DNA of 64,000 bases from Acidobacteriota bacterium (GCA_947503365.1 CANNDT010000007.1:18812-82811); one strand, 5' to 3'; numbered from the stretch's first letter, positions 509 to 58,670 are shown. The notes: a model not told the origin generated them from the letters alone. Translations and numbers: made by a program.

Positions 509-572
509 ACACCGAGGCTCCGAGGCACCGAGAACGTTTGGTAGGTACCTCGGTGTCCCGGTGCCTCGGTGT
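509..572. repeat. Intergenic inverted array of 8-bp units (CACCGAGG-like x3 / CCTCGGTG-like x3)
   Basis: ACACCGAGG-CTCCGAGG-CACCGAG, a spacer, then CCTCGGTG-TCCCGGTG-CCTCGGTGT; can fold into a long hairpin. Confidence 0.85.
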
Positions 573-578
573 CCCGTA

Positions 579-1790
579 TCAGCGGGAGGCGCCCGCCTTG
601 GCCGGTTGAAGCGACTCCGCAAACCTCAGGATGCGGGTCGCACCCTCGCGAAGCTGCTCCATCGACGTCGCGTACGAGATGCGCAGGTAGCCCGGCGCGT
701 CGAAGGCCTCACCCGGCGTCACGACCACGTATTCTTTCTCGAGGAGCTTCGCCGCGAAGTCGGCCGAGCTCGTCACGCCGTTCTCCGCGGAGAACAGGCC
801 GCGGATATCCGGGAACAGGTAGAACGCACCGCTCGGCTTGACGCACTTGATGCCGGGGTTCGCGGTCAGCCAGCCGTGGATGGCGTCGCGCCGCGTCCGG
901 TATTCGTTGAGCATCGCCACCACCGAATCCTGCGGACCGGAGATCGCCGTGAGCGCCGCCTTCTGCGTAATCGACGTGATGTTCGACGTCGTCTGGCCCT
1001 GGATCACGTTGAAGGCCGCGGTCAGCTCCTTCGGCGCAATCGTCCAGCCGCAGCGCCAGCCGGTCATGGCGTACGCCTTCGACGCGGATCCGGCCAACAC
1101 CGTGCGGTCGCGGTGCAGATCGAACAGCACCTTCGGCAGGTTGTGCGGCACCGGCTCGTAGATCAACTGCTCGTAGCAGAGATCGACGATGACCCAGATC
1201 CCCTGCGCCTTCGCTGCCGTGACGATCGTGGCGGTCGTCGATTCGTCGACCAGCGCGCCGGTCGGGTTGCAGGGCGAGTTGATGATGATGCCCTTGGTGC
1301 GCGGCGTGATGGCCGCGATCATCTGCTCGGCGTGCACCGCGAACCCGTCGTCGGGCCGGGACGCGACGATGACCGGGGTGGCGCCCACGAGCTTGATCTG
1401 CTCGGGAATCGTCGGCCAGTACGGCGCGTGCGTGATGACCTCGTCGCCTTCTTCGAACAGCGCGAGCGCGGCGTTGAAGAGCGCCTGCTTACCACCGGCG
1501 GTCAGCAGCACTTCGGCCGGACCGAACTCGATGCCGTAGTCGCGCTTGTAGCGGGCGCAGATCGCCTCGCGCAGCTCGGGAATGCCGGCGGCTGCGGTGT
1601 AGCGCGTGAAATTGGCGTCAATCGCGTCCTTGCCCGCCGTCTTCACGTGCTCTGGCGTCGTGAAATCCGGCTCGCCGGCGCTGAAGTCGACGACGTCGAA
1701 TCCGGCGCGGCGAAGGCGCTCGGCCTCCGCGGCCACCTTGAGGGTGGCTGACACTGATACTTGCGCGAGTCTCTTTGCGAACATACCCAT
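579..1790 (-). CDS. PLP-dependent aminotransferase class I/II (aspartate aminotransferase family)
   Basis: GEPDF, NSPCNPTG and SKAYAMTGWRCG (PLP-lysine) motifs. Confidence 0.92.
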   Translation of the reverse strand: MGMFAKRLAQVSVSATLKVAAEAERLRRAGFDVVDFSAGEPDFTTPEHVKTAGKDAIDANFTRYTAAAGIPELREAICARYKRDYGIEFGPAEVLLTAGGKQALFNAALALFEEGDEVITHAPYWPTIPEQIKLVGATPVIVASRPDDGFAVHAEQMIAAITPRTKGIIINSPCNPTGALVDESTTATIVTAAKAQGIWVIVDLCYEQLIYEPVPHNLPKVLFDLHRDRTVLAGSASKAYAMTGWRCGWTIAPKELTAAFNVIQGQTTSNITSITQKAALTAISGPQDSVVAMLNEYRTRRDAIHGWLTANPGIKCVKPSGAFYLFPDIRGLFSAENGVTSSADFAAKLLEKEYVVVTPGEAFDAPGYLRISYATSMEQLREGATRILRFAESLQPAKAGASR

Positions 1791-1794
1791 TCTT

Positions 1795-1849
1795 CCCCCT
1801 GCTCCCTAACCCCTGCTCCCTAACCCCTAACCCCTAGCCCCTAGCCCCT
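1795..1849 (-). repeat. Heptamer tandem repeat (TTAGGGG/CTAGGGG/GCAGGGG-like), 8 G-tracts on the mRNA strand
   Basis: Minus strand AGGGGCTAGGGGCTAGGGGTTAGGGGTTAGGGAGCAGGGGTTAGGGAGCAGGGGG, spanning the coaD stop to the aminotransferase start. Confidence 0.9.
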
Positions 1850-2359
1850 GACCGCTAGTTCGTTGTGCTTTCTACGCATCCACGTCTCGACGGGCGCCGG
1901 CACGAGGCCGCGCACTTCCCCGCCAAGCTTGAAGACTTCCCTGATCAGCCGTGAGCTCACAAACGTGTACTGCTCCGCCGGCATCATGAACACGGTTTCG
2001 AGCGAGGGCTCGAGATGCCGGTTCATCAACGCCATCTGAAACTCGTACTCGAAGTCCGACACCGCGCGAAGTCCGCGGACGATGGCGCTGGCGCGGCGTT
2101 GGCGCGCGTACTCCACCAGCAGGCCGCCAAAGCTGTCGACCTCGACGTTGGGGTATTCGTGAAACACCTCACGAATGATCTCCACGCGCTCGGAGGTCGT
2201 GAACAGCGGCTCTTTCTCCGCGTTGATCAGCACCGCGACCACGATCCGCTCGAACAGGTGCGCGCTGCGCAAGATCAGATCGACGTGCCCATTGGTGAGC
2301 GGGTCGAACGATCCCGGAAAGATGGCGAGGCGTCCGGAGGGCGCGCCCGAAGGTATCAT
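1841..2359 (-). CDS. coaD: Pantetheine-phosphate adenylyltransferase
   Basis: FPGSFDPLTNGH and RGLRAVSDFEYE motifs; adjacent to rsmD. Confidence 0.97.
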   Translation of the reverse strand: MIPSGAPSGRLAIFPGSFDPLTNGHVDLILRSAHLFERIVVAVLINAEKEPLFTTSERVEIIREVFHEYPNVEVDSFGGLLVEYARQRRASAIVRGLRAVSDFEYEFQMALMNRHLEPSLETVFMMPAEQYTFVSSRLIREVFKLGGEVRGLVPAPVETWMRRKHNELAVRG

Positions 2360-2898
2360 CGTGGCCTCGTCATGAATGTCAGCGTGCTGTCGCCGGACTT
2401 GACGTCGCGCACGCGCGTCAGTGCGGCAGGAACCTCGGGCTCGCGCCGGGTGGCGCGCTCGAGTACCACCAGACCATCCGCACTGAGCACGGCGGCGGCA
2501 GCCTCGAGCGCCGGCATCACCGAATCAGCATCGTACGGGGGATCCAGGAAGATCAGGTCGAATGCCGCGCCAGCCGGGAGACGTCGCAGCACGGTGGCTA
2601 CGTCACCCCGATGAATAGTATAGCCTCGCTCCACGCCGCAGAGCGCGAGGTTGGCCTCGATCAACGCCGCCGCGCGGGCATTCTTCTCGACAAACGTGAC
2701 TTCCCTGGCGCCACGGCTCAAGGCCTCGATGCCCACGGCGCCCGTGCCCGCGTATCCGTCGAGCACGCGCGCATCCGCGACGCGGGCCGCGAGGATATTG
2801 AACAGCGTTTCGCGCAGCTTGTCGGAGGTCGGCCGCAGGCCGTCCCACGTCGGCGCCTTGAGGTGGCGACCCTTAAAAATCCCGGCGATTACGCGCAT
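2356..2898 (-). CDS. rsmD: 16S rRNA m2G966 methyltransferase
   Basis: MRVIAG...RPTSDKLRETLFN, DGYAGTG, FLDPPY. Start moved to 2898 because the ORF-track extension runs through a repeat. Confidence 0.95.
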   Translation of the reverse strand: MRVIAGIFKGRHLKAPTWDGLRPTSDKLRETLFNILAARVADARVLDGYAGTGAVGIEALSRGAREVTFVEKNARAAALIEANLALCGVERGYTIHRGDVATVLRRLPAGAAFDLIFLDPPYDADSVMPALEAAAAVLSADGLVVLERATRREPEVPAALTRVRDVKSGDSTLTFMTRPR

Positions 2899-2907
2899 GT
2901 CTCTTTT

Positions 2908-3010
2908 GCCACGAAGACCACGAAGACAAGGCCACGAAGGCACGAAGAAACCATTTTGAGGCTTCGTGATCTTCGTGACCTTCGTGGCTGGTCTTCGTGA
3001 CCTTCGTGGC
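2908..3010. repeat. CACGAAG/CTTCGTG ~9-bp tandem inverted element, copy A
   Basis: 4 CACGAAG units followed by 5 CTTCGTG units; abuts the recG stop codon. Confidence 0.92.
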
Positions 3011-5097
3011 TAACCAACTTCGATCAACCCGAACTGCTGCTGCCAGCGCTCCAGCACGAACTGCAGCAGCTCGCCGCTCAGGCCGCCCTGCTCGACGATC
3101 CGCCGCGCCTCACGGTGGGCGTCTTCCATGACATCGCGGTCGCGCACGAGATCGCCCGTCCGCAGCGTCGGCAACCCGGACTGGCGCGTGCCAAAGAAAT
3201 CGCCGGGGCCGCGCAGCTCGAGATCGCGTTCGGCAATCACGAAACCATCGTTTGAGTCCGCCAGCGCCTTCAACCGTTCCCGCGCATCGTCGGTCCACGG
3301 TGACTGGTAGAGCAGCACGCAGTGCGACTCCCACTGGCCGCGGCCGACGCGGCCACGGAGCTGATGCAACTGCGACAGCCCGAACCGCTCCGCGTGCTCG
3401 ACGACCATCACCGAGGCGTTCGCCACGTCGACGCCGACTTCAACGACCGTCGTGGAGACGAGGATGTGGATCTGCCCGGCGGCAAACGCCGACATGACGC
3501 GGTCCTTGGCGTCCTGCTTCATCCGGCCATGCAGCAGCGCCACGCGGTAGGCGGGGAAGATCTCGGCCTGCAGGTGATCCGCCATCTCGGTGGCTGACTT
3601 CAGATCGATCTTTTCGGAGCCCTCGACGAGCGGATAGATGATGTACGCCTGGCGGCCGGCGTCGAGTTGATCCCGAATGAGCTGATAGATCTCGTCGCGG
3701 CGCGACTCGGGCTTGACCCACGTGCGGATCGGCGTCCGCCCCGGCGGCAGGTCAGGGATCTTCGAGACGTCGAGCTCGCTGTAATCGGTGAGCGCCAGCG
3801 TCCGCGGAATCGGCGTCGCGGTCATCAGCAGCACGTCCGGCCTCAGCCCCTTGCCGCGCAACGCCGCGCGCTGCGCCACGCCGAATCGATGCTGCTCGTC
3901 GATGACCACCAGCCCGAGCTTGTGAAACGTGGTTGATTCCTGGACGAGCGCGTGGGTGCCGACGATCAGGTTCGTGGTGCCCCGCTCGATGTGCGCATAG
4001 AGCGTGTGCTTGTGCAGCGGCGGCGTGCTCCCCGTCAGGAGATCGACGCGGAAGCGCGACTGCGACAGCAGCCGCGCGATGTTGCCGTAGTGCTGCGACG
4101 CCAGGATCTCGGTCGGCGCCATGAACGCCACCTGCAGGCCGTTTTCCATCGCGACAATCGCCGCCAGCAGCGCGACGATCGTCTTGCCGGCGCCGACATC
4201 GCCTTGCAGCAGCCGATGCATCGGTTGCGGCTCGAGCATGTCCTCGACGATCTCTTTGAGCGCCTGCCGCTGCCCCGGCGTGAGCTTGAACGGAAGGATC
4301 TTGGCCGCCGAGGAGCGGATGCGGTCGTCCACCTTGAGGACAAACGGCTTCGGGTCCGCGCTCGTCGCATGGCGGCGCCAGGCGTGACCCACCTGGTAGA
4401 GGAAGAACTCTTCGAAGATCATCCGGCGCTGCGCCGGCGTCCTGAAGGCATTGAGCTCGTCTACCGCCGCGTCGTTCGGCGGGAAGTGTGAGGCCTCGAT
4501 CGCCGCGCGGCGCGGCAGCAAGTGGAGGCGTTCTCGAATGTCGGCGGGCAGGAGGTCTGGAATCTCCGCGGGCAGCTCGTCGAGCGCCTGGCGCACCAGC
4601 TTGCGCTGCATGTTCGGCGTGACCGTGCCGGTCTTCTCGTAGAACGGCACGACGCGCCCCGTGTGGAGGCCGGTGAGATCGTCGGTGACGAGCTCGTACT
4701 CGGGGTTCATGAAGTGCAGCCCGGACGAGTCGAGCTTGACGTCGCCAAAGATGACGACCTGCTGGTGCGGCACCAGGATGTCCGCGAGATACGCCTGGTT
4801 CATCCACGTGCAGCGAATCGCGCCGCTCGCGTCGCCGATGACCGCGTTGAAGATTTTGAAGCCTCGACGACGAGTGATGGAGAGCTTGCAGCTCTTGATC
4901 TCGCCAAGCACCGCAGCCTTGTTGCCGGGTCGCAACGAGACGATCGGCTGCATCTTGCTGCGATCCTCGTAGCGGAACGGCAGCCGATAGAGCAGGTCTT
5001 CGACGGTGAGCAGGCCGGCGCGTGCGAGATCCGCCGCTTTGCGCGGTCCTACGCCTTTGAGAAATTGGAGCGGAGTCGAGAGGAGATCGTCGCGCAA
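3010..5097 (-). CDS. recG: ATP-dependent DNA helicase RecG
   Basis: QGDVGAGKT, DEQHRFGV, MTATPIPRT, QLRGRVGR and RGPGDFFGTRQSG motifs. Confidence 0.97.
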   Translation of the reverse strand: MRDDLLSTPLQFLKGVGPRKAADLARAGLLTVEDLLYRLPFRYEDRSKMQPIVSLRPGNKAAVLGEIKSCKLSITRRRGFKIFNAVIGDASGAIRCTWMNQAYLADILVPHQQVVIFGDVKLDSSGLHFMNPEYELVTDDLTGLHTGRVVPFYEKTGTVTPNMQRKLVRQALDELPAEIPDLLPADIRERLHLLPRRAAIEASHFPPNDAAVDELNAFRTPAQRRMIFEEFFLYQVGHAWRRHATSADPKPFVLKVDDRIRSSAAKILPFKLTPGQRQALKEIVEDMLEPQPMHRLLQGDVGAGKTIVALLAAIVAMENGLQVAFMAPTEILASQHYGNIARLLSQSRFRVDLLTGSTPPLHKHTLYAHIERGTTNLIVGTHALVQESTTFHKLGLVVIDEQHRFGVAQRAALRGKGLRPDVLLMTATPIPRTLALTDYSELDVSKIPDLPPGRTPIRTWVKPESRRDEIYQLIRDQLDAGRQAYIIYPLVEGSEKIDLKSATEMADHLQAEIFPAYRVALLHGRMKQDAKDRVMSAFAAGQIHILVSTTVVEVGVDVANASVMVVEHAERFGLSQLHQLRGRVGRGQWESHCVLLYQSPWTDDARERLKALADSNDGFVIAERDLELRGPGDFFGTRQSGLPTLRTGDLVRDRDVMEDAHREARRIVEQGGLSGELLQFVLERWQQQFGLIEVG

Positions 5098-5104
5098 CGA
5101 GAAA

Positions 5105-5713: not shown

Positions 5714-5755
5714 GGACGGCCCTTTCTGGACTACTTTTCGAGTGTAGCATCCTTC

Positions 5756-5786
5756 TTGATCTTCGCCTTCTGTTCGCATATAGTTT
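5756..5786 (+). promoter_or_regulatory. lexA sigma70 promoter overlapped by putative LexA boxes
   Basis: TTGATC(5756)-17 bp-TATAGT(5779), overlapped by CTTC-N7-GTTC-N7-GTTT (5761-5786), matching the GTTC-N7-GTTC type of SOS box. Confidence 0.7.
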
Positions 5787-5846
5787 CGCCAGCTCGGCGG
5801 CCGCTCTAAATAACTCTGGGCCGAGCAGTCGACAGGAGGATGTGCC

Positions 5847-6458
5847 GTGCTTCCGCTCACCAAACGTCAGCGTGAAATCCTGGACTACCTCAATGAGTTC
5901 ATCCAGCAGCACGGCTACGCGCCGAGCCTCGAAGAGATCGGCCGGCGTTTCAACCTCTCTTCGCTCGCAACCGTCCACAAGCACCTCACCAACCTTCAGG
6001 AAAAGGGCTTCATCCGGCGCGCCTGGAATCGCAGCCGATCGGTTGAGCTCGTGCCGACGCGCGCGGGCGGACGCGCGGTCGAGCTGCCCCTGCTCGGCTT
6101 CGTCGCCGCGGGCGTGCCGATCGAAGCCGTCGATCCCGCCAACAGCGAGACGATTGCGGTGCCCGAAGCGCTCATCGGCAAGGGCGACAGCTACGTGCTG
6201 CGCGTCAAGGGCGACTCGATGATCGACGAGCAGATTCGCGACGGCGACTTCGTCATCGTCGAGAACCGCAAGTCGGTGGACAACGGCGAAATGGTCATTG
6301 CCCTGCTCGGCGGCGTCGACGTGACGCTGAAGAAGTTCTATCGCGAGAACGGCAGGGTGCGCCTGCAGCCCGCCAACCCCGCGATGCAGCCGATCATGGT
6401 CGGACCCAACGACGTCGAAGTGCAGGGCGTCGTCGTCGGCGTCATGCGCAAGTATTAG
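5847..6458 (+). CDS. lexA: SOS repressor LexA
   Basis: LTKRQREILDY winged HTH, VAAG cleavage site, GDSM catalytic Ser, TLKK. Confidence 0.97.
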   Translation: MLPLTKRQREILDYLNEFIQQHGYAPSLEEIGRRFNLSSLATVHKHLTNLQEKGFIRRAWNRSRSVELVPTRAGGRAVELPLLGFVAAGVPIEAVDPANSETIAVPEALIGKGDSYVLRVKGDSMIDEQIRDGDFVIVENRKSVDNGEMVIALLGGVDVTLKKFYRENGRVRLQPANPAMQPIMVGPNDVEVQGVVVGVMRKY

Positions 6459-6484
6459 GCTTCAGGGTTCAGGCCTCAGTTCAG
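6458..6484 (+). repeat. Short heptamer tandem repeat after the lexA stop (GGCTTCA-GGGTTCA-GGCCTCA-GTTCA)
   Basis: 7-bp periodicity starting at the stop codon. Confidence 0.55.
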
Positions 6485-6511
6485 CGCTGGTCACGAGTAG
6501 AATCGTTGACC

Positions 6512-6835: not shown

Positions 6836-6836
6836 G

Positions 6837-7553
<717 letters not shown>

Positions 7554-12807: not shown

Positions 12808-14506
12808 AGCGATGGCGGCCGCGGCCGTGCTCGCCATCGCGGCGTTCGCTGTCGATCTCCGCGCGCAGACCGCCGAAGCCGTCTACAACGACGTCCTCGC
12901 GCGTGAGGGAGATCTGCGGCGCGAGCTCGATCTCGCGCCGCAACTGAGGGCGCAGCCGCCCGGCACGGCGTCGGCTGCCCTGCTCAGGCGCGTCCGTGCA
13001 ACTGTCGACGCCTATGAGGATATCGTTCGCCGTTTCCCGCGCGGCGGCAGCAGCGACGACGCGCTGTGGCACGGGGCGGGGCTCGCGGCGGACGCGTTCT
13101 GGCAATTCGGCGACGCGCGCGATCGGATCACCGCGCTCCGCCTGTTCGAGTTCCTCGTCGCGCAGTATCCGAAGAGCACGTTCGCCAAGCAGGTGGTCAG
13201 CCCGACGGCGCGCCTCACGGCTGCGGAAGCGGCGAGCTCGCCGCAATCAACGCTCAAGGCGATCCGCCGCGAGGTCCTGCCGGATACGCTCCGCGTGACC
13301 CTGGAGCTCGAACGCGAAGCCGCGTTTCACGAAGAACGGATCGACGGTCCACCCCGGGTATTCGTCGATCTGAAGAACACCCGCGCCATCGACGAGCTGA
13401 AAGACGCCACGCTCGCCTTCCCGGACGATGTCGTTCGCCAGATTCGCGTCGGCCGCCAGCTCGACGCCCGAACGCGAGTCGTCTTCGACCTCCAGGCCAC
13501 CGCGCGCTACAGCGTCTACTCGCTCTACAACCCGTACCGCCTGGTCATCGACTTCGAACGAACACCTGTCGCGCCCGCCTTCGCTGAAGCTACGGCGCGC
13601 AAGCCCGCCCCGGCTGAAGCTACGGCGCGCAAGCCCGCCCCGGCTGAAGCTACGGCTGGCAAGCCCGCTACGTTGCCCGTTGCAGCGGCGTCGCTTCCTC
13701 CATCTCCACCACGTGAGAGCGCGGTCGTCGCGGCGACCATGAGTACGCCACCGCCAGGTTCGCCGTCGGCCAATTCGCGGGGCGGGTATTCGCTCTCGAG
13801 ACAGTTGGGGCTGGGGGTGGCGAGAGTCGTGATCGACCCAGGCCATGGCGGCCATGATCCCGGCGCCAAGGTGAAGGGCCTGCTGAGTGAGGCGGCGCTT
13901 GTGCTCGACGTCGCGCAGCGGCTCGAAAAGCTCCTGCTGAAGCAAGGCGTCGAGGTGGTGCTGACGCGGGCGGCCGATGTGTTCGTGCCGCTCGAGACCC
14001 GCACCGAGATCGCCAATCGTGCCGGAGCCGATCTCTTCCTCTCGATTCACGCCAACGCCAGCTCCGACACGGCGGCACGCGGCTTCGAGACCTATTTCCT
14101 CAGCTTTGCTCCCAACGCGCAGGCCGAGGCGATCGCCGCACGCGAGAACGCCGCATCGGCCAGGACGATGAGGAGCCTGCCGGACATCGTGAAGGCGATC
14201 GCGCTCAACAACAAGATCGATGAGTCGCGTGATTTTGCGTCGCTGGTGCAGGCGTCGCTGGCGGATCGGCTGAAGAAGGTCGACAAGAGTGCCCGAAGCC
14301 TCGGCGTCAAGCAGGCGCCCTTCATGGTGCTGATCGGCGCCACCATGCCAAGCGTACTGGCGGAGATTTCCTTCCTGACGAACCGCCGGGAAGGAAATCT
14401 GCTCAAGACCCAGAGCTACCGGCAGCAGGTCGCCGAGGCGCTGTTCGCCGGCGTCATGAACTACCAGCGCTCTCTCAAAAAAGCAGCAACAACCGCGTCG
14501 CGCTAG
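12791..14506 (+). CDS. N-acetylmuramoyl-L-alanine amidase (TPR-like + AMIN + Amidase_3)
   Basis: IDPGHGGHDPG, SIHANA, PSVLAEISF; GAGGAGG RBS before ATG 12791. Confidence 0.92.
   Translation: MRSFARAMAAAAVLAIAAFAVDLRAQTAEAVYNDVLAREGDLRRELDLAPQLRAQPPGTASAALLRRVRATVDAYEDIVRRFPRGGSSDDALWHGAGLAADAFWQFGDARDRITALRLFEFLVAQYPKSTFAKQVVSPTARLTAAEAASSPQSTLKAIRREVLPDTLRVTLELEREAAFHEERIDGPPRVFVDLKNTRAIDELKDATLAFPDDVVRQIRVGRQLDARTRVVFDLQATARYSVYSLYNPYRLVIDFERTPVAPAFAEATARKPAPAEATARKPAPAEATAGKPATLPVAAASLPPSPPRESAVVAATMSTPPPGSPSANSRGGYSLSRQLGLGVARVVIDPGHGGHDPGAKVKGLLSEAALVLDVAQRLEKLLLKQGVEVVLTRAADVFVPLETRTEIANRAGADLFLSIHANASSDTAARGFETYFLSFAPNAQAEAIAARENAASARTMRSLPDIVKAIALNNKIDESRDFASLVQASLADRLKKVDKSARSLGVKQAPFMVLIGATMPSVLAEISFLTNRREGNLLKTQSYRQQVAEALFAGVMNYQRSLKKAATTASR
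13573..13668. repeat. 30-bp tandem repeat x3 (REP-like unit) in frame in the amidase linker
   Basis: GCCCGCCTTCGCTGAAGCTACGGCGCGCAA plus two variants, encoding PAFAEATARK-PAPAEATARK-PAPAEATAGK. Confidence 0.9.
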
Positions 14507-24142: not shown

Positions 24143-25027
24143 CTACTCCCGGCCCTTCATCAGCTCCGCACGCCACTTGGCGGCCTCGTCGAAGATCGTG
24201 TCGATCGTGTCGCCCCGGTGCAGATTGTCTCTCATTTCGGTCAGACAGGCGATCATCAAGTCGAGGGCATCGCCGATGGCGTCCGCGTTGGTCGCGCAGA
24301 TGTCCCGCCACACGCTGGCGGGGCTCGACGCGAGCCGAGTCGTATCCGCAAGTCCCCGGCCGCCCATCCGGATGCCGCCCGGCGGCGTCGCGCGGCCGAC
24401 GACTTCCATCAGCGCGCTTGCCGTGAGTTGTGGGAGATGACTGACGAAGGCCATCAGGCGGTCGTGCTGATCCGCGTCCATGGTCGTCGGCGTCGCGCCG
24501 AGACCCGTCACGAACTGCGATAGCCGGGCAACGGCGTCGTCGCGTGAATCGCCGGCCCCAGGCGGCGGGGCGCCCGCTGGCGTGAAGATCCAGGGACGCC
24601 CTGCGAAGAGATCCGGCCGGGCAAATCCGAACCCGCCGCGCTCGGCGCCACTCAGCGGATGGCCGCCGACAAAGGTCGCCGAAAGCGGAAGCCCGCGCGC
24701 GGCATCGACGATGGCCCGCTTGGTGCCGCCGACATCGGTGATGACGACCTTGTCTGGACGATTGGATGCGAGCTGCTTCAGCAGCTCGATATTCTGATTC
24801 ACCGGGGCCGCAAGCACGATCAGATCGACCGCGGGCAGGGCGGCCACGCTCTCGAACGCCCGATCGATCGCGGCGCTCCCCATCGCGTGGGCAAGCACCG
24901 ACGGGGTATCCACACCTGCCAGGCGAGACGCCGGCCACCGCTCGCGCACAGCCAGCGCAATCGACCCGCCAATAAGGCCGAGTCCGACGATGGCGATGCT
25001 ATTGAACGGAGGGTCTGTGGGGGACAT
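24143..25027 (-). CDS. tyrA: Prephenate/arogenate dehydrogenase
   Basis: GLGLIGGS, TDVGGTK, GGHPLSG, SHLPQL. Confidence 0.93.
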   Translation of the reverse strand: MSPTDPPFNSIAIVGLGLIGGSIALAVRERWPASRLAGVDTPSVLAHAMGSAAIDRAFESVAALPAVDLIVLAAPVNQNIELLKQLASNRPDKVVITDVGGTKRAIVDAARGLPLSATFVGGHPLSGAERGGFGFARPDLFAGRPWIFTPAGAPPPGAGDSRDDAVARLSQFVTGLGATPTTMDADQHDRLMAFVSHLPQLTASALMEVVGRATPPGGIRMGGRGLADTTRLASSPASVWRDICATNADAIGDALDLMIACLTEMRDNLHRGDTIDTIFDEAAKWRAELMKGRE

Positions 25028-25032
25028 TCGTC

Positions 25033-25122
25033 AACTCCCAACTCCCAACTCCGCAACTCCCAAGTGATTGGGATTTCCTGGGAGTTGGGGATTGGGTATT
25101 GGGTATTGGGTATTGGGAGTTG
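25033..25122. repeat. Heptamer tandem inverted element (CAACTCC)n ... (TTGGGAG/TTGGGTA)n
   Basis: caactcccaactcccaactccgcaactcccaa-spacer-tgggagttgggattgggtattgggtattgggtattgggagttg between the aroF stop and the tyrA start. Confidence 0.88.
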
Positions 25123-26169
25123 TTACCGTGCCCATCCGCGGCGAGCCACCGGCTCGAGGCAGATCCCGCGTCCGATGGCCGGCGCGATGATCCGGAGCTC
25201 GGCCATCAGCCGATCGAACTGCGCCGGGAACATCGACTGCGCGCCGTCGCTCAGCGCGTGATCGGGATCGTTGTGCACCTCGATGATCAGGCCATCCGCC
25301 CCGGCGGCGACCGCCGCGCGCGCCAACTGCGCCACCATGTCGCGCCGTCCGGCGCCGTGGCTCGGGTCGGCCACGATCGGCAGGTGGCTCAACTTCTTGA
25401 CGACGGGGATTGCCGAGATGTCGAACGTGTTCCGCGTCGCCGTTTCGAAGGTGCGGATGCCGCGCTCGCACAGGATGACGTCGTTGTTGCCGCCTGCCAG
25501 GATGTATTCCGCCGACAGCAGCCACTCTTCGATCGTCGCCGAGATCCCGCGCTTCAGCAGCACCGGCTTGTGGTGGTAGCCGAGCTCACGCAGCAGCGTG
25601 TAGTTCTGCATGTTGCGGGCGCCGACCTGGAAGATGTCGCAGTACTTTTCGATCAGCTCGATCTGGCTGATGTCCATGACCTCGGACACGAGCTTCAGGT
25701 TGTGGGCGTCCGCGGCGCGCCGCAGCATCTGGAGCCCCTTCTCGCCGTGGCCCTGGAAGCTGTAGGGAGAACTGCGCGGCTTGAACGCGCCGCCGCGGAA
25801 GATCTTGGCGCCCGCGCGCTTGACGGCGGCCGCCGATGCCTGGCACTGCTCGTCGGTTTCCGCCGAGCAGGGACCGGCCATCACGATGACTTCATCGCCG
25901 CCTATTCGCACATCGTCGATGACGACGACGGTGTCTTCCGGGTGGTAGGTACGGCTGGCGCGCTTGTAGGGCTCGGAGATGCGCAGCACTTCGTGGACGC
26001 CGTCGAGAATTTCGATCATCTCTTTCTCGACTTTGTCGGTGCCGACCACGCCGAGCACCGTGCGGGTCGCGCCCGACGACCGGTGAACGTCCATTCCGAG
26101 CTCGATGAGGCGGGCAATCACCGCGTCAATCTGCAACTCGCTCGCCCGCTCGCTCATTACTACGACCAT
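25123..26169 (-). CDS. aroF: DAHP synthase class I-beta with N-terminal regulatory domain
   Basis: [42 protein letters not shown]. Confidence 0.95.
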
Positions 26170-33950: not shown

Positions 33951-33991
33951 AAAATAAAAACGCCCCTTCAACCGGTGGCTGAAGGGGCGTT
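33951..33991 (-). terminator. Attenuator intrinsic terminator
   Basis: Minus strand AACGCCCCTTCA-N9-TGAAGGGGCGTT followed by TTTATTTT, 1 nt before the aroD ATG. Confidence 0.9.
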
Positions 33992-34022
33992 GGTAACTGC
34001 TGAGTTCCTGTATCTGTTCGTC

Positions 34023-43446: not shown

Positions 43447-46359
<2,913 letters not shown>

Positions 46360-52638: not shown

Positions 52639-52639
52639 G

Positions 52640-54004
52640 GTGACCGCTCCCGCACGAACGGCCGCCTATCACGCCCTGCGCAGCGTCGCGCTCGAGCGCG
52701 CCGACCTGCCAACCGCCCTTGCCCAGAGCCGTCAGCACCTCGACGACGACCGCGACCGGGGCCTCGCGGCGGAGATCGTGGCGGGGACGCTGCGATGGCA
52801 GCGAGCGCTCGACCACCTGATCGCGCACTTTGCCAAGCGCGCACTATCGACCATCGATCCTGAAGTCGTCATCATCCTCAGGCTGAGCCTCTACCAGATC
52901 CTGCACCTCGATCGCGTTCCCGCGTCCGCGGTGGTGGACGACGCGGTCGATCTGACGCGGGGGGCGCGCAAGCGGAGCGCATCGGGGTTTGTGAACGCGG
53001 TCCTGCGCAACACCCTGCGACAACGCAACCGCCTGCCGTTGCCGGCGAGACCCGACAACCCTGCCGATAACGACGCCGATCGCGATGCCGCGCTCGCCTA
53101 TCTCGGCGTCACGCACTCGCATCCCGACTGGCTGGTGAGGCGCTGGCTGGATCGGTATGGGTTCGACGCGACCGAGCGGTGGGTCAGGTTCAACAACGAC
53201 ACACCCCGGCTGACGCTGCGCGCCAACCTGCTGCGATGCACGCGCGAGGAGCTGGCCGCTGCGCTCTCCGCCGACGAGGACGTCGAGACCGAGCCGAGCC
53301 TCCACGCTCCCAACGGCCTGGTCGTCACCTCCGGCAATCCGCTCCGGGTTCCGCAGGATGGATCCTTCTTCGTCCAGGACGAAGCCTCTCAACTGGTCAG
53401 CCTCGTCGTCGGCGCGCAACCCGGCGAGCGCATCCTCGATCTCTGCGCCTCGCCCGGTGGAAAGACGACGGCGATGGCGGCCGAGATGGGCGATAGCGGA
53501 CTGATCGTCGCGTGTGACGTTCGGCCGCGCCGCATGTCGCTGCTGAACGAGACCGTCGAGCTCAGTGGCGCCACGCACGTCGCACTCGCGCATGTCGCCC
53601 GGGATGGACCGCTGCCGTTCGCCACCGCCTTCGATCGCGTACTCGTCGACGCGCCCTGCTCCGGCCTCGGCACGATCCGTCGGGATCCCGATATCCGCTG
53701 GCGGCGGCACGAAGCCGACCTCCCTGCTCTCGCCACCGCACAGGTCGCCCTGCTGTCGAGAGCGGCGGAGACGGTCAAGGCGGGCGGCCGGCTGGTCTAC
53801 GCCACCTGCTCGAGCGAGCCGGAGGAGAACGAAGGCGTCGTGGATGCGTTCCTGGCGGCGCATCCCGAGTGGGCGCTGGTCGATCTCCGAACCAGTGGAG
53901 GACCATCGCTTGGCCCGCTCATCGATCCAAGAGGAATGATGCGGACCCTCCCCCACGAACACGCCCTGGAAGCCTTCTTCGCGGCGGCGCTGAGACGGCG
54001 CTAG
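52640..54004 (+). CDS. rsmB: 16S rRNA m5C967 methyltransferase
   Basis: NusB-like N-terminus, QDEAS, DLCASPGGKT, DAPCSG, YATCS. Confidence 0.96.
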   Translation: MTAPARTAAYHALRSVALERADLPTALAQSRQHLDDDRDRGLAAEIVAGTLRWQRALDHLIAHFAKRALSTIDPEVVIILRLSLYQILHLDRVPASAVVDDAVDLTRGARKRSASGFVNAVLRNTLRQRNRLPLPARPDNPADNDADRDAALAYLGVTHSHPDWLVRRWLDRYGFDATERWVRFNNDTPRLTLRANLLRCTREELAAALSADEDVETEPSLHAPNGLVVTSGNPLRVPQDGSFFVQDEASQLVSLVVGAQPGERILDLCASPGGKTTAMAAEMGDSGLIVACDVRPRRMSLLNETVELSGATHVALAHVARDGPLPFATAFDRVLVDAPCSGLGTIRRDPDIRWRRHEADLPALATAQVALLSRAAETVKAGGRLVYATCSSEPEENEGVVDAFLAAHPEWALVDLRTSGGPSLGPLIDPRGMMRTLPHEHALEAFFAAALRRR

Positions 54005-54137
54005 GCCACGAAGACGGTTGGCCACGAAGGGCACGAAGAACACGAAGCAGCTAAAGATCCTTCGTGACCTTCGTGACCTTCGTGGCCGGACCGTCTTCGT
54101 GAGCTTCGTGGCCAAGAGGACTTCGTGGCCTTCGTGG
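54004..54137. repeat. CACGAAG/CTTCGTG ~9-bp tandem inverted element, copy B
   Basis: Starts at the rsmB stop (TAGGCCACGAAG); 4 CACGAAG units then 7 CTTCGTG units. Confidence 0.92.
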
Positions 54138-54154
54138 TACGATTAACCGCTTTG

Positions 54155-54877
54155 ATGCAGTTGAAAACGCGGGTCTGGGGGCTGGGAAAGTTCCTGCTGC
54201 TCGCCGGCGCGCTCGCCGCGACGTTTTTCGTGTTTGCGGCGGCGGCGATGCGCGTGGCGCTTCGGGCGCGCGAGGTGCAGGTGCCGGTGCTCATCGGCCA
54301 CAGCGTGAACGAGGCGTCGCAGTCGCTTGCCACCCTGGGCCTGGCACTGCGGATCGATCCCAACCAGCGCGTGGACGACAAGGTGCCCGCCGGCCGCATC
54401 ATGCAGCAGGACCCGGCGCCCGGCGGGTCGGCGCGCCAGCAGCGCACCATTCGCGTCTGGGTCAGCTCCGGGCCGCGAGCGACCTCGGTGCCGGCCCTCG
54501 TGGGCCAGACCGAACGCACCGCGCGCATGCGCCTCGAACAGGACGGTCTCGAGGTCGGCTCGCTGACCGAGTTCCGGTCTCCTGACTACGCCGCCGACGC
54601 CGTCGTGGCTCAGGACCCTGCGCCGTCCTCGCGTGCGCCGCGCGTCTCGCTCCTGCTCAATCGCGGTGAGCAGGCGACGACCTACGTGATGCCCGACGTG
54701 ATTGGCATGAACGGCGAACGCGCAGCCGAAGCGCTCCGTACTCGCGGCTTCCGGGTGACGATTACCGGCTCGCAACCGTACGCCGGCGTCCCGCAAGGGA
54801 CCGTCGTTCGGCAGCAACCGGCCGGCGGCTTCAAGGTCGGCCCAGCCGATTCGATCTCCCTCGAGGTCAGCCGCTGA
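54155..54877 (+). CDS. Membrane-anchored PASTA-domain protein (3 PASTA, no kinase)
   Basis: TM helix; VPVLIG, VPALVG, MPDVIG repeats with Q-x-P motifs. Confidence 0.88.
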   Translation: MQLKTRVWGLGKFLLLAGALAATFFVFAAAAMRVALRAREVQVPVLIGHSVNEASQSLATLGLALRIDPNQRVDDKVPAGRIMQQDPAPGGSARQQRTIRVWVSSGPRATSVPALVGQTERTARMRLEQDGLEVGSLTEFRSPDYAADAVVAQDPAPSSRAPRVSLLLNRGEQATTYVMPDVIGMNGERAAEALRTRGFRVTITGSQPYAGVPQGTVVRQQPAGGFKVGPADSISLEVSR

Positions 54878-55548: not shown

Positions 55549-55961
55549 GCGATTCATCTGCGAGCGCCACAATCCGCCGGACGCGGGTGCGGGTGCGGTA
55601 TGCCGAAACCGACCGCATGGGCGTCGTGTACTACGCCAACTACCTGGTGTGGTTTGAAGTGGGCCGTACCGAGTGGCTCCGCACCACCGGATGGAGCTAC
55701 CGGGAAATGGAACAGGACGGCATCGCATTGCCGGTGATCGACGTGCGCTGCGAATACCTTCAGCCAGCGCGGTATGACGATGAGATCGAGATTCGGACGC
55801 GCGCGTCGATCCTGACGCCCATCCGCATCCGCTTCGACTACGACGTCGTTCGCATCAGCGACGAGGTCGTCGCGGCGACCGGTCACACCGTGCACGCCGC
55901 GCTCGACCCGAACGGACGCCCCTGCCGCCTCCCGGCGCGCGTGCGAGAGATGCTCGCATGA
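55545..55961 (+). CDS. Acyl-CoA thioesterase (YbgC/FadM family)
   Basis: VRYAETDRMGVVYYANY. Confidence 0.9.
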   Translation: MSDSSASATIRRTRVRVRYAETDRMGVVYYANYLVWFEVGRTEWLRTTGWSYREMEQDGIALPVIDVRCEYLQPARYDDEIEIRTRASILTPIRIRFDYDVVRISDEVVAATGHTVHAALDPNGRPCRLPARVREMLA

Positions 55962-56902: not shown

Positions 56903-56911
56903 TTGGTATTG

Positions 56912-57718
56912 ATGACTGAACGTGTGTCTTCCGTCGCTCGCGCGTCGCGCGCCCCTCGCATGCTGGCGCTGCTGGTGCTCCTCGTCGCGGCCGGCGGCTG
57001 CGGCAACAAGCAGCTCGGACCGCCCGCGGGCGCGGCCCAGCCCGATCGCTTCCTGTTTGACCGCGCCAATGAAGCGATCGTGAAGGAACAGTGGCTGAAC
57101 GCCCGCACCTACTTCATGCAGATCGTCGACAACTATCCGCAGAGCCCCTTCCGCCCCGACGCGAAGCTCGGGATGGGCGATTCGTACCTGGGGGAAGGGT
57201 CGGCGGAATCGTCGGTGCTGGCGGCCAATGAGTTCCGCGAATTTCTGACGTTCTACCCGACCAACGCCCGCGCCGACTACGCCCAGTACAAGCTCGCAAT
57301 GAGTCACTTCCGGCAGATGCGTGCGCCGGAGCGCGATCAGACCGAAACCCGCGAGGCGCTCAGGGAATTCGATACGTTCTTCCAGCGCTACCCGGATAGC
57401 GCGCTGACGTCGGAAGTGAAGCAGAACTGGCGCATCACGCGCGATCGTCTGAGCGATGCGTCCTACCGCGTGGGTCTCACCTACTACCGCGCCCGCTGGT
57501 ACCCGGGCGCGATCAGCCGCTTCCGCGAGGTCCTCGCGGAAGACCCCGGGTTCACCGGCCGGGACGGCGTGTACTTCTATCTGGCGGAGTCGCTGGCCAA
57601 GTCCGATAAGACGGTTGCCGAAGCCATTCCGTACTTCGCGCGCCTGATTGCAGAATTCGATCAGAGCGAGTTTCTCGAAGAAGCGAAGAAACGGCTCGAA
57701 ATACTGAAGACTCAGTAA
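56912..57718 (+). CDS. bamD: Outer membrane protein assembly factor BamD
   Basis: Lipobox AGGC, TPR helices, ERDQT, YPDS. Confidence 0.88.
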   Translation: MTERVSSVARASRAPRMLALLVLLVAAGGCGNKQLGPPAGAAQPDRFLFDRANEAIVKEQWLNARTYFMQIVDNYPQSPFRPDAKLGMGDSYLGEGSAESSVLAANEFREFLTFYPTNARADYAQYKLAMSHFRQMRAPERDQTETREALREFDTFFQRYPDSALTSEVKQNWRITRDRLSDASYRVGLTYYRARWYPGAISRFREVLAEDPGFTGRDGVYFYLAESLAKSDKTVAEAIPYFARLIAEFDQSEFLEEAKKRLEILKTQ

Positions 57719-57756
57719 CTTAGCTGGGTCTGGCAGACGATCGGGGCCAGACAGAT

Positions 57757-58521
57757 ATGAGATCCAGATACACGATTTCCGTGATCGCTGCGGCGGTGCT
57801 CACTGCGACGACCGTGGGCGCCCAGCGCGGCCCCGCTCCTGCCGGGAGCCATCTGCCGGCCGACGTCCTCGCCCTGGCCTGCGCGCCGAGCATGGTGTTC
57901 GAGCAGCCCCCCACCCCGCTTCGCATCACCGGCGGGCAGGACGCCTCCGCCCGGCTGACATTTGCGCCTGGCGACCTCCTGACCATCAATGCCGGCAGCG
58001 ACAACGGCATCGAGGTCGGGCAGGAGTACTACGTTCGGCGTGTGCAGGCCGCCGAGCGGCGCCCCGTGACCCGCGCCAACGCCGCCACCATTCGCACCGC
58101 CGGGTGGATCAGGATTTACGCCATCGACAAGGAAATGTCCCTGGCGACCGTCGTCCATGCCTGCGACACGATCAACGTGGACGACTTCCTCGAGCCGTTC
58201 GCGCTGCCCCAGGTCCCGGTGGCCGCCGACACCGGCGGCATCAAGGCGCAACGCGGCAACTACGGCAAGATCGTACTCGGCACCGATCGGCGCCGGAGCT
58301 TTGCCAAGGGTGACTTCTTCATCGCCAATCGCGGCAGCGATCACGGCGTGACGCTCGGCGCACGGTTCGTGATCTATCGCGATAAGCGAGTGGCCGAGAA
58401 CTTCCTGTATGAGCTTGGCGAGGCCGTCGCCGTGGACGTGAAGCCCGAAACCTCAACCCTGCAGGTCACGCTCTCCCGCGACGCCTTCCTCGCGGGCGAT
58501 TACGTGGCGATCCGGAAATAG
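57757..58521 (+). CDS. Exported hypothetical protein with duplicated beta domains (FlgT C-terminal-like)
   Basis: Signal peptide; repeated INAGSDNGIEVG / ANRGSDHGVTLG motifs. Confidence 0.7.
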   Translation: MRSRYTISVIAAAVLTATTVGAQRGPAPAGSHLPADVLALACAPSMVFEQPPTPLRITGGQDASARLTFAPGDLLTINAGSDNGIEVGQEYYVRRVQAAERRPVTRANAATIRTAGWIRIYAIDKEMSLATVVHACDTINVDDFLEPFALPQVPVAADTGGIKAQRGNYGKIVLGTDRRRSFAKGDFFIANRGSDHGVTLGARFVIYRDKRVAENFLYELGEAVAVDVKPETSTLQVTLSRDAFLAGDYVAIRK

Positions 58522-58670
58522 GCCACGACGCACACGAAGAACTAAGCCACGAAGAACACGAAGAACACGAAGATCTTTTACTTCGTGATCTTCGTGACCT
58601 TCGTGGCCAAACTCGTGATCTTCGTGGCTTTTTTCGTGACCTTCGTGGCTAATTTCGTGGACTTCGCGGC
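58521..58670. repeat. CACGAAG/CTTCGTG ~9-bp tandem inverted element, copy C
   Basis: Fills the whole gap between two convergent stop codons; about 5 CACGAAG-like units then about 9 (C)TTCGTG-like units. Confidence 0.92.

Follow-up and report, generated by a model that had tools for sequence, protein, structure and literature searches.

What are the short tandem repeats that fill the gene-end spacers in this DNA of an Acidobacteriota bacterium? In the window, by which we mean the whole stretch of 64,000 nucleotides that was analysed, the original prediction had listed five intergenic arrays with inverted arms and two one-armed arrays, most of them at or near a stop codon, and had proposed that they could be empty cassettes. 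The seven arrays were found where they had been placed, both by Tandem Repeats Finder and by direct reading, and according to our own gene calls every one of them, rather than most, abuts or overlaps a stop codon. Six lie between co-directional neighbours and fill the whole gap to 5-20 nt short of the next start, and the seventh (58521-58670) lies between convergent stops. Their positions in the window are as follows.

509..572, no strand assigned: two-armed element of period 8 (arms 510-532 and 544-576), read as CACCGAGG x3, a 13-nt loop and CCTCGGTG x3, and listed by part as (CACCGAGN)x3, 13-nt loop, (NCTCGGTG)x3; bounded by an aminotransferase stop (579-581) and, at 495, the start of the following gene, both on the minus strand.

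1796-1858, minus strand: one-armed array of period 7, CCCTAAC/CCCTGCT type, 7.7 copies; overlaps a coaD-like stop at 1841-1843 (minus strand) and ends 5 nt short of the aminotransferase start at 1790.

2908..3011, no strand assigned: two-armed CACGAAG element, mostly of period 9 (2908-2947 and 2962-3011), with four CACGAAG cores, a 14-nt loop and five CTTCGTG; between the recG stop at 3010-3012 (minus strand) and an rsmD-like start at 2898.

6457..6484, plus strand: short one-armed array of period 7 (6457-6479), AGGCTTC x3.3; begins inside the lexA stop codon at 6456-6458 (plus strand), upstream of a DUF3467 gene.

25032..25122, no strand assigned: two-armed element of period 7 (25032-25063 and 25085-25117), CAACTCC x4, a loop and TTGGGTA/GGGAGTT x5; fills the gap from the DAHP synthase stop at 25123-25125 (minus strand) to the prephenate dehydrogenase start at 25027.

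54004..54137, no strand assigned: two-armed CACGAAG element (54006-54047 and 54059-54137) with 4 units, a 12-nt loop and 7 units; directly after the rsmB stop at 54002-54004 (plus strand), ending 17 nt ahead of the next gene.

58521..58672, no strand assigned: composite CACGAAG element (58515-58573 and 58581-58672) between convergent stops at 58519-58521 (plus strand) and 58671-58673 (minus strand).

The inverted-arm design was confirmed in the five two-armed elements, with the qualification that their arms are unequal in unit number and that those of 25032..25122 are only partly complementary. Regarding the claimed unit sizes, the 7-mer and the 8-mer stand, whereas the supposed 9-mer is a 7-nt core with a spacer of mostly 2 nt, the polarity being always CACGAAG first. 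The number of units per array ranges from 2 to 18. Inside the arrays, Tandem Repeats Finder detected perfect duplications, 54059-54084 and 58548-58573 each comprising 2.9 identical copies, as well as higher-order repeats of 22, 21 and 42 nt, and 58521..58672 combines 21/42-nt repeats with an internal TAAGC/GCTAA punctuation. A contig that stems from a different sample covers the whole of 54004..54137, ungapped and with two base differences.

In our view a family of small cassettes, insertable and bounded by hairpin arms, is likely to account for the arrays: the five two-armed elements would be its gene-less members, and the one-armed pair probably its remnants or relatives. A cassette comprises a short terminal inverted repeat, 2-18 tandem units, each with a conserved 7-nt core and 0-2 variable bases, a loop or small gene, and the inverted array, and full cassettes carry GxxExxY (PF13366) or a four-helix-bundle protein (PF05635, '23S rRNA intervening sequence protein').

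To measure the abundance of the design, we searched for any 7-mer present in two or more copies and followed by two or more copies of its reverse complement. This gave 124 loci with units, loop and inverted units genome-wide, versus 22, 16 and 6 in three Markov genomes (fifth order, equal in size). As many as 107 of them are built from 18 recurrent unit words, and 55 belong to the CACGAAG type, dispersed loci that all have a common core and 5-nt terminus, so the dispersal that had been predicted held in a test set beforehand. Arrays of period 7-9 occupy 292 of 3907 intergenic gaps; in a genome that is 89% coding, 143 period-7 arrays are intergenic versus 73 coding, and 151 versus 53 for period 8. 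The 107 elements are found between co-directional (69), convergent (23) and divergent (8) genes, divergent gaps accounting for 27% and convergent gaps for 14% of the intergenic bases. When a CACGAAG terminus faces a stop codon, it starts 1-2 nt past it in 24 of 64 cases and within 12 nt in 39 of 64. Apart from units, termini and a weak motif in the loop, copies within the genome have little in common, and no more than 5 pairs can be aligned over at least 80% of their length, which suggests that the proliferation is old or did not proceed by ordinary copy-and-paste.

The assembly contains three cargo genes, of which two encode GxxExxY and one a four-helix-bundle protein, and each is enclosed by arms of a family that also occurs empty.

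Contig C80: GxxExxY gene with CACGAAG arms.

Contig C21: GxxExxY gene with CACCGAG arms.

C64:15625-16029: four-helix-bundle gene (PF05635) with GGGTTCG-type arms, flanked by an array of eight perfect 14-mers.

The association with TIGR02436 and GxxExxY genes, which the original prediction had brought up, is thereby borne out, as is its statement that the 64-kb window itself holds no cargo gene, the cargo lying on these three contigs. The CACGAAG elements at 2908, 54004 and 58521 match the C80 arms in unit family and termini, and the element at 509, of the CACCGAG family, matches the C21 arms with flanks included. For CAACTCC (25032), CACAGAG/CACGGAG, GGTAGCT and AGTTGTC, no filled copy was found in the 95%-complete assembly. 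In the 401-genome phylum set, C[AG]CNNAG units form the arms at 30 of the 30 best GxxExxY loci and at 0 of 30 four-helix-bundle loci, so that arms and cargo are linked and the kind of unit is specific to the cargo class. The inverted C[AG]CNNAG arms at GxxExxY were recognised by script in 24 of the 30 and by eye in the remaining 6, one locus (L152) having a single clear arm; four-helix-bundle loci show inverted arms in about 28 of 30, with diverse units, none of the CACNNAG type. An alignment of 30 GxxExxY sequences revealed a retained PD-(D/E)xK nuclease site, with D76 and K88 invariant, E86 at least 90% conserved, and G34, E37 and Y40 kept; the structure model has a pLDDT of 93.7. Those three of the proteins whose genes have CACGAAG arms group together in a single clade (support 97/94).

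Across the phylum, the hairpin pattern was matched in 130 of 401 genomes, in a patchy way, and a reversed-pattern control gave about 0 matches. GxxExxY was present in 70 of 85 hairpin-rich genomes (at least 5 pattern matches) versus 51 of 271 hairpin-free ones, an odds ratio of 20 for which Fisher p-values overstate the evidence because the genomes are related. Empty hairpins and GxxExxY thus co-occur across genomes, and the four-helix-bundle gene does so more weakly. Two groups of genomes count against the cassette reading, namely the 15 of 85 hairpin-rich ones with no match to the one GxxExxY query used, and the 51 with GxxExxY and no hairpin match; one GxxExxY-negative genome, 83% complete, has 295 pattern matches. 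The CACGAAG unit family is also spread over phyla, an exact 28-base hairpin pattern occurring in at least 123 stretches. Among the matches listed, record titles name Methylobacter, Acidobacteriota, Desulfobacteraceae, Binatia, Verrucomicrobiia, Planctomycetota, Chloroflexia, Gemmatimonadetes, Bacteroidales, Heliobacteriaceae and others, and the termini of these listed matches share T-T-[C/A]-A-C ahead of the first core.

Orthologous junctions in related genera proved to be empty, to carry remnants or to carry other unit families. In 3 of 11 relatives that of the 2908 element (recG/rsmD-like) is empty, the gap measuring -4 to 6 nt, and at the lexA/DUF3467 junction (6457) relatives have other arrays. 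At the 54004 junction one relative (G003) keeps a single CTTCGTG unit and two have gaps of 2-6 nt, a native motif of the relatives, TGTAGTACAT, which adjoins the 54137 end, resembling the unit. The 58521 junction measures 6 nt in G003 and 16 nt in G010, and contains a different hairpin, of unit CTAGAAG, in G006. The 25032 junction has a same-type element in two other genera (L215, L217); one type at the same place in three genera fits long vertical persistence, perhaps with a use for the host, and fits mobility as well. Scarcity of copies, junctions uniform among relatives and lack of cargo genes, the outcomes that the original prediction had named as contrary to it, were not what we observed, and its reading of the arrays as empty cassettes is supported.

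The predicted hairpins are very stable: the 69 elements folded, about 100 nt in length, average -55.5 kcal/mol. Folding of the sense and antisense strands showed no G-U asymmetry (39 vs 29, p = 0.37) and thus gave no sign of selection at the RNA level, and low-coverage RNA contigs yielded no usable ends. Of the spacer bases between cores, only 29 of 113 in this genome are Watson-Crick complementary to their mirror partners, as are 134 of 295 elsewhere; the core is constrained beyond the needs of pairing. Interrupted every 7 bp by mismatched 2-nt spacers, the stem would suit RNase III less well than an unbroken helix, which counts against processing. No excess of 3-6 nt direct repeats was detected at offsets 0-8 around 55 local and 122 foreign copies, in a test in which a 2-nt GC or TA duplication is indistinguishable from an inverted repeat.

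According to the mechanism that we propose, cassettes, which we infer to be mobile, would enter short gene-end spacers, often directly past the stop and without target duplication, and would be transcribed within the host operon. Paired with each other, the arms would form a long hairpin in which the stop upstream and the start downstream come to lie next to one another again, and RNase III may cleave this hairpin, by analogy with the ORF-bearing 23S rRNA intervening sequences (IVS). An insertion between tightly coupled genes would then do little harm. The core heptamer, conserved more than pairing demands, would serve for recognition, most probably by the protein that the cassette itself encodes, and slippage would change the number of units in the arms. 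Such elements would link unexplained bacterial repeats of 7-9 bases to inserts found in some ribosomal RNA genes.

The hairpins could instead be RNA elements that serve the host, selected between cistrons as mRNA stabilisers, as RNase III or RNase E sites or for translational coupling, and merely exploited by small genes. They do fill stop-to-start gaps of housekeeping operons (recG-rsmD-coaD, DAHP synthase-prephenate dehydrogenase, rsmB), and the stability of the fold, the junction occupied alike in three genera, the tendency towards U-rich loops in the sense orientation (22 vs 11, p = 0.08) and the GGGAG in the last, start-adjacent unit of 25032..25122, 7 nt ahead of the ATG, all agree with such roles. 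However, orthologous junctions work without any element in several genera (gaps of -4 to 7 nt), the CACGAAG unit appears in unrelated contexts across phyla, the stability lacks strand asymmetry, spacer complementarity is not maintained and the distribution in the phylum is patchy, so we regard these host roles, taken together, as unlikely. Replication slippage alone, by which chance heptamers would have grown in place and acquired an inverted arm by fold-back copying, without movement, would account for the perfect recent duplications in the arrays, the eight 14-mers beside the C64 gene, the variable unit number, the other units at the same junction in relatives and the unit-like native motif by the 54137 end. 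It is very improbable all the same: core and terminus are common to 55 dispersed loci and recur in many phyla, polarity is invariable, arms are specific to the cargo class, and the mirror spacers are not complementary, which indicates that the arms are not fold-back copies.

We give hardly any credence to ordinary transcription terminators or REP/RAYT-type palindromes. The location downstream of stop codons, the enrichment at convergent junctions (23 of 107 elements vs 14% of intergenic bases) and the presence of RAYT-like genes (two PF01797 matches) speak for them, but most elements are within operons immediately ahead of the next start, and Rfam gave no family match. Intrinsic terminators were rejected for lack of a U-tract, TTTT being found within 15 nt past the 3' arm in just 5 of 115 tails. 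REPs mobilised by RAYT were rejected as well, as neither RAYT-like gene is flanked by the repeats described here: the C2 copy, the only repeat-flanked one, has a different, classical 33-nt REP, and the C9 gene has no arrays. The suggested RAYT association is not supported, and the statement that the arrays are not classical REPs proved right. A further reading, which we regard as improbable, is confined to those one-armed arrays that are G-rich (1796-1858 and its kin) and takes them for G-quadruplex heptamers acting on gene expression. It is favoured by the G-rich, G4N3-like sequence of 1796-1858 on the transcribed minus strand, by 64 period-7 arrays with at least 3 G3/C3 runs genome-wide, many from other unit families (13 of the 64 reach to within about 100 nt of where a contig stops), and by Xanthomonas repeats, likewise near stops and between aligned ORFs in the available text of PMC4692102. 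Nevertheless, the strand bias is weak, the sense strand between co-directional genes being G-rich in 23 and C-rich in 15, and C19:6303-6401 is a two-armed pair, G-rich and then C-rich. Inverted pairs here and the 70-75 convergent, hairpin-capable pairs per Xanthomonas genome (PMC4692102, available text) make the arrays look like one element class.

Returning to the cassettes, they were compared with known systems. As stated in the original prediction, they are not CRISPR arrays, which were rejected given units of 7-9 nt with 0-2 nt between cores, versus repeats of 24-48 nt with unique spacers of like length. REP/BIME are dispersed extragenic palindromes without target duplication, presumably mobilised by a RAYT gene flanked by inverted REP copies. 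The elements described here are similarly extragenic and free of target duplication, with a small gene between inverted copies of a repeat that it may mobilise, yet their cargo is not a Y1/HUH transposase and their arms are arrays of 7-9-nt units and not single palindromes of 20-40 nt. MITEs, and the subterminal repeated transposase sites at the ends of Ac/Ds, En/Spm, Tn7 and Mu, offer another parallel, in that gene-less copies outnumber gene-bearing ones and the inverted ends consist of repeated short motifs; MITEs were rejected because no 3-6 nt target-site duplication was seen at any offset examined, and, unlike in such transposons, no known transposase is present and copies share almost nothing but units and termini. 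Free-standing homing genes between conserved genes, such as phage T4 seg/mob and the PD-(D/E)XK enzyme I-Ssp6803I, resemble the cassettes as optional small nuclease-type genes with patchy presence/absence alleles. Homing genes are not known to have repeat arms or gene-less hairpin derivatives, both of which are found here, where GxxExxY is a putative nuclease. Heptamers of the STRR class are known from cyanobacteria (Calothrix, ref. 39 of PMC4692102), and the traits of the SSR/STRR class are found in our arrays: tandem ~7-nt units, intergenic, near stops, rare between divergent genes and often in convergent pairs.

In the available text of PMC4692102 (Rehm et al. 2015), intergenic heptamers, GGGNATC in Xanthomonas and GGGGA(C/T)T in Nostoc, overlap the stop codon or lie within 50 bp of it, favour gaps between aligned ORFs and seldom occur between divergent ones, are transcribed, and were proposed as G-quadruplex elements; that text does not link them to cargo genes, 'four-helix' occurring 0 times. 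In contrast, the commonest units here (CACGAAG, CACCGAG) have no G-tracts, and periods of 8 and 9 occur too. The 23S IVS of Coxiella burnetii contains an S23p ORF preceded by tandem heptamers whose number varies among strains, its stem is cut in vitro by recombinant RNase III, and the sporadic distribution of 23S IVS suggests horizontal transfer (PMC4990558, available text). Like that IVS, the PF05635-family gene of C64 is inside terminal inverted repeats forming a long stem. The window elements differ in lying between protein genes in mRNA operons and not in rRNA helix 9, 25 or 45, and the assembly has no 23S rRNA gene for comparison. Most copies here are gene-less, none of the window elements carrying a PF05635/S23p ORF, the second cargo is a GxxExxY nuclease-like protein, and the arms are whole unit arrays. 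The proposal of an undescribed system thus stands in part: heptamers were known already (PMC4692102, PMC4990558), and the available text of neither paper links them to gene-less copies or to GxxExxY.

Every array listed in the original prediction was found with Tandem Repeats Finder and by direct reading, in such a way that the window holds five two-armed elements (tandem units of 7-9 nt, a loop and the inverted units) starting at 509, 2908, 25032, 54004 and 58521, and two one-armed arrays at 1796 and 6457. On direct reading, the apparent 9-mer unit is a 7-nt core, CACGAAG, plus a spacer of mostly 2 nt, the 8-mer consists of CACCGAG and one further nt, and the 7-mer element has CAACTCC in one arm and TTGGGTA/GGGAGTT in the other. 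None of the arrays matched an Rfam family in a search of the window, where a tRNA gene (61773-61843) was the sole match. According to our own gene calls for the source assembly, G000 (codon-usage caller, 4096 genes, 89% coding), all seven arrays touch a stop codon; six of them fill gaps between co-directional housekeeping genes, and one lies between convergent stops.

Co-directional gaps of the window filled by arrays (own gene calls)
recG / rsmD-like
coaD-like / aminotransferase
aminotransferase / next gene
lexA / DUF3467
DAHP synthase / prephenate dehydrogenase
rsmB / PASTA-domain gene

A run search detected the stretch in public runs labelled as lake and freshwater metagenomes, and DNA contigs from two other samples cross the elements at 54004 and 58521 with 2 and 0 base differences, both gap-free. 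The two RNA runs with the stretch gave few, short contigs. Apparent joints between 54047 and 58580 turned out to be other copies of the repeat.

The G000 assembly (4.69 Mb, 65.4% G+C, 189 contigs) was scanned for loci in which two or more copies of a 7-mer precede two or more copies of its reverse complement. This yielded 124 two-armed loci, versus 22, 16 and 6 in three fifth-order Markov genomes; 107 of the 124 belong to 18 recurrent unit words, and polarity is constant in every unit family (CACGAAG, for example, is invariably first).

Unit families of the G000 two-armed scan
CACGAAG: 55 loci
CACCGAG and variants: 11 loci
CACAGAG/CACGGAG/GAGACAC: 15 loci
GGTAGCT/GCTGGGT: 10 loci
AGTTGTC/GTTGTCA: 4 loci
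CAACTCC and kin: 5 loci
GGGTTCG/GGTTCGG/CGTTCGG: 5 loci
CACGAAA: 2 loci

Arrays of period 7-9 with at least 2.8 copies were placed by Tandem Repeats Finder in 292 of the 3907 intergenic gaps of G000 (262 of 1968 among gaps of at least 40 nt). Period-7 arrays are mostly intergenic (143 versus 73 coding), as are those of period 8 (151 versus 53), and period-6 arrays are mostly coding (163 versus 19 intergenic), as expected of codon repeats. In the 8-nt families, an inverted flank of 8-11 nt outside the units is also common to the copies, which are therefore discrete elements and not bare microsatellites. Of the 64 period-7 arrays that contain three or more G3/C3 runs, 13 end no more than about 100 nt from a contig end, and seven of these touch its very end; examples of arrays at contig ends are C123:1-34, C162:1-29, C177:1-25, C69:1-30, C44:1-27, C104:15404-15429 and C51:31553-31578. 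Long arrays of this kind thus seem to break the assembly, so that their true number is under-counted.

Of the 107 elements with recurrent unit words, 69 lie in co-directional, 23 in convergent and 8 in divergent gaps; another 6 are within gene calls, and 1 is at the edge of a contig. Divergent gaps make up 27% of the intergenic bases of G000 and convergent gaps 14%. The five bases preceding the first core are T-W-A-R-C on both sides of the CACGAAG family, and of its 64 termini facing the 3' end of a gene, 24 start 1-2 nt past the stop codon, and 39 do so at a distance of no more than 12 nt. The terminal 6 nt include a stop triplet in 37/64 stop-facing versus 15/38 start-facing termini, and the terminal TAR therefore belongs in part to the element. 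Only 5 of 115 tails have TTTT in the 15 nt past the 3' arm, and the elements are thus not terminators of the canonical kind. Target-site duplications of 3-6 nt, at any offset, were not found, a result that speaks against transposition of the staggered-cut DDE type.

The hairpins are very stable (mean of -55.5 kcal/mol). G-U asymmetry as a sign of selection at the RNA level was absent (sense more stable in 39 versus antisense in 29, p = 0.37), and arm length showed no asymmetry relative to transcription (14 versus 12, with 8 equal). The spacer bases between cores are Watson-Crick paired with their mirror partners in 29 of 113 cases in G000 and 134 of 295 in other genomes. As the spacers are non-complementary, the stem consists of successive 7-bp blocks, the arms did not arise by fold-back copying, and conservation of the core goes beyond the needs of pairing. 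Copies have little in common apart from units, termini and a weak loop motif in either orientation, with only five pairs aligning over at least 80% of their length; loops have a median of 20 nt and 47% G+C. Slippage is ongoing, as shown by perfect internal duplications and by higher-order repeats. Elements span from the upstream stop to just short of the next start, and the base of the folded stem would bring stop and start together, as at empty junctions, an apposition that would make insertions tolerable between tightly coupled genes. The elements are presumed to be mobile, and their RNA may be processed.

Four junctions of the window were followed in relatives, all of other genera, with around 75% DNA identity in the flanking genes.

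Junctions occupied in G000
recG / rsmD, window 2898-3010: 111 nt
rsmB, window 54004-54155: 150 nt
convergent junction, window 58521-58671: 149 nt
DAHP synthase: 95 nt

In three genomes the recG/rsmD gap measures -4, 5 and 6 nt, and the stop codon has kept its position. The same junction holds a CACGACG hairpin in G016, a CAACGCC/GGGAGTT hairpin in G013, a one-armed CTCCGTG/CTTCGTG remnant in G003 and other inserts in the rest of the genomes. The rsmB gap is 2 and 6 nt in two genomes, and G003 has there one CTTCGTG unit and then the same GTACGAT flank; its rsmB frame appears to be without the usual stop and to run through the leftover unit to a TGA seven codons on, which looks like the footprint of a lost element. 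At the convergent junction, G003 and G010 have gaps of 6 and 16 nt, and G006 has a 1325-nt insert with a (CTAGAAG)n/(CTTCTAG)n hairpin directly past the stop and an extra opposite-strand gene. At the DAHP synthase junction, an element of the CCCAA/GGGAG type is also present in G010 and G003, and the gap is around 7 nt in G006. Empty, remnant and other-family states, together with the same type of element at this last junction, therefore indicate that both turnover and long persistence occur. The RecG tree of 12 genomes was star-shaped, with 6 of its 9 inner branches open. In G018, the recG/rsmD junction carries a 315-nt insert whose two ends are a GGCCTCA array and a TTCGTGA/TCAAGAA hairpin.

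The G000 assembly encodes two GxxExxY proteins (TIGR04256/PF13366) and one four-helix-bundle protein (TIGR02436/PF05635), none of them inside the window, and inverted arrays enclose all three genes.

Cargo genes of G000 and their arms
C80, GxxExxY gene: arms of CACGAAG
C21, GxxExxY gene: arms of (CACCGAGG)x3 and inverse, with the same flanks as the empty copies, including the window element at 509
C64, four-helix-bundle gene: arms of long GGTTCTGGGTTCGC arrays and inverse

The four-helix-bundle ORF (C64:15625-16245, L138:326-946) has no stop ahead of the right arm and its frame continues through the repeat, giving 206 aa with a tail of (EPRTG)-like repeats. At C102:8783-9829 (L139), a CACGAAG arm of five units and a CTTCGTG arm of four enclose a 293-aa ORF whose start resembles a signal peptide; the ORF matched no Pfam family, and may represent a third cargo type or a gene trapped between two half-elements. 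An association with RAYT genes, which had also been suggested, did not hold, as neither of the two RAYT-like genes (PF01797 matches at C2 and C9) is flanked by arrays. That of C2 (C2:11581-12417) has a classical 33-nt REP, GTCGCCTGTAGCGCGCGCCCTTTAGGGTGCGAC, in tandem copies on its flanks; this is a second repeat system of G000, unrelated to the arrays.

Across 401 genomes of the phylum (an unpublished one, G076, being included in counts only), relatives of GxxExxY were found in 142 and of the four-helix-bundle protein in 97. Among the 30 best GxxExxY loci, inverted arms were recognized in 24 by script and in the other six by eye, one of the latter (L152) having one clear arm only. All units at these 30 loci fit C[AG]CNNAG (CACGAAG, CACAGAG, CACGGAG, CACCGAG, CACAAAG, CGCAGAG, CGCCGAG and CGCCAAG), with reversed polarity at two. 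Inverted arms are present at around 28 of the 30 best four-helix-bundle loci (L190 and L198 being doubtful cases), with diverse units, including GGGTTCG, GGTTCAC, GGAAGTCT, GGTGCTGA, GTTTCAA, GGGTGAAT and others, and CACNNAG-type units at none of the 30. Two four-helix-bundle cassettes (L180 and L193, from other genomes), with arms of the TTGCGTC/GACGCAA type, sit directly between tRNA genes, so cassettes enter RNA gene clusters besides mRNA operons. In the tree of the 30 GxxExxY proteins, the three CACGAAG-armed ones and L152, whose clear arm is CTTTGTG/CTTCGTG, form one clade (97/94), the remainder being poorly resolved.

Empty hairpins were counted with the pattern CACNRAG-N1-2-CACNRAG-N8-38-CTYNGTG, which catches short-looped copies only. 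It matched in 130 of the 401 genomes, with G000 at the top (313 overlapping matches), and its reversed control gave almost no matches. GxxExxY was carried by 70 of the 85 genomes with at least five matches, 21 of the 45 with one to four and 51 of the 271 with none (odds ratio of 20 for the first versus the last group); p-values of this co-occurrence overstate the evidence, because the genomes are kin. Fifteen of the hairpin-rich genomes (at least five matches) lacked a GxxExxY match by this query. The four-helix-bundle gene showed a weaker association (odds ratio of 4 overall and 1.8 among GxxExxY-positive genomes).

Beyond the phylum, an exact pattern of 28 bases (two CACGAAG and two inverted units, loop of 8-38 nt) occurred in at least 123 stretches in 596 billion bases, versus around 5e-4 expected by chance according to our estimate (28 fixed bases, two strands, 31 gap lengths). 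Among the matches listed, record titles include Gammaproteobacteria, Desulfobacterota, Acidobacteriota, Binatia, Verrucomicrobiota, Planctomycetota, Chloroflexota, Gemmatimonadota, Bacteroidales, Nitrospinota and a Heliobacteriaceae MAG; in these stretches, T-T-[C/A]-A-C precedes the first core and loops are variable and A+T-rich. The link between cargo and arms, the junction states and the co-occurrence support the original prediction that gene-less copies are empty cassettes.

In the alignment of GxxExxY proteins, G34, E37, Y40, D76 and K88 are invariant and E86 is conserved in at least 90%, so that the PD-(D/E)xK site is complete. The protein had no match by sequence in the PDB. Its predicted structure (pLDDT 93.7) gave as best Foldseek matches Cas4 SSO0001 (E = 3.7e-3), lambda exonuclease and Hjc, none at E <= 1e-3, and the fold is thus generic PD-(D/E)xK, with no indication of the substrate.

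Tandem heptamer repeats in bacterial intergenic DNA have been known since 1990, ORF-bearing inserts occur in 23S rRNA genes, and we know of no function for the two very widespread small protein families of the cargo; these long-separate puzzles are here seen as one system. Among experimentally studied systems, the ORF-bearing 23S rRNA intervening sequences are the nearest kin. That of Coxiella is described as having a PF05635 ORF within a 28-bp terminal stem cut by RNase III in vitro, and tandem GACAGAT heptamers in variable number ahead of the ORF (PMC4990558). The 23S rRNA gene is absent from the G000 assembly. Intergenic heptamer arrays of Xanthomonas and Nostoc, often in convergent pairs, near stop codons and rare between divergent genes, have been interpreted as G-quadruplex elements, in work that does not mention cargo genes (PMC4692102). 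In the open-access literature we found no published link of heptamer arrays, 23S inserts and cargo, nor GxxExxY in such a role; the papers found on GxxExxY do not deal with repeats, those on PDDEXK_3/PF13366 cover classification only, and none was found on TIGR02436 or on four-helix-bundle proteins in connection with intergenic tandem repeats.

It is possible, though on balance rather unlikely, that each unit array offers the cassette's own protein a stack of recognition sites, in which case GxxExxY would be the nuclease of a hitherto unrecognised class of prokaryotic mobile elements (small PD-(D/E)xK enzyme, repeated-heptamer ends, no target duplication, insertion at gene ends) that mobilises both gene-bearing and gene-less copies, with ORF-bearing 23S rRNA intervening sequences and STRR heptamers as special cases. 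What is new here is that each cargo class has its own kind of unit, that empty hairpins and GxxExxY co-occur at the genome level, that one unit family spreads across phyla, that target duplication is absent and mirror spacers are non-complementary, and that orthologous junctions show empty, remnant and other-family states. With more than 100 empty hairpins and three gene-bearing ones, G000 offers numbers large enough for testing. In practical terms, the arrays seem to break assemblies, may be misread as terminators or small RNAs, and are located within essential operons.

Three other repeats were observed in the window. A small perfect hairpin (GCCCCTTCA ... TGAAGGGGC) between divergent genes, at 33961-33992, lacks the tandem-unit design, and tandem repeats of 30 nt (13583-13668, 2.9 copies, 96% matches) and 24 nt (45288-45360, 3.1 copies) lie in coding regions and are unrelated to the intergenic arrays.
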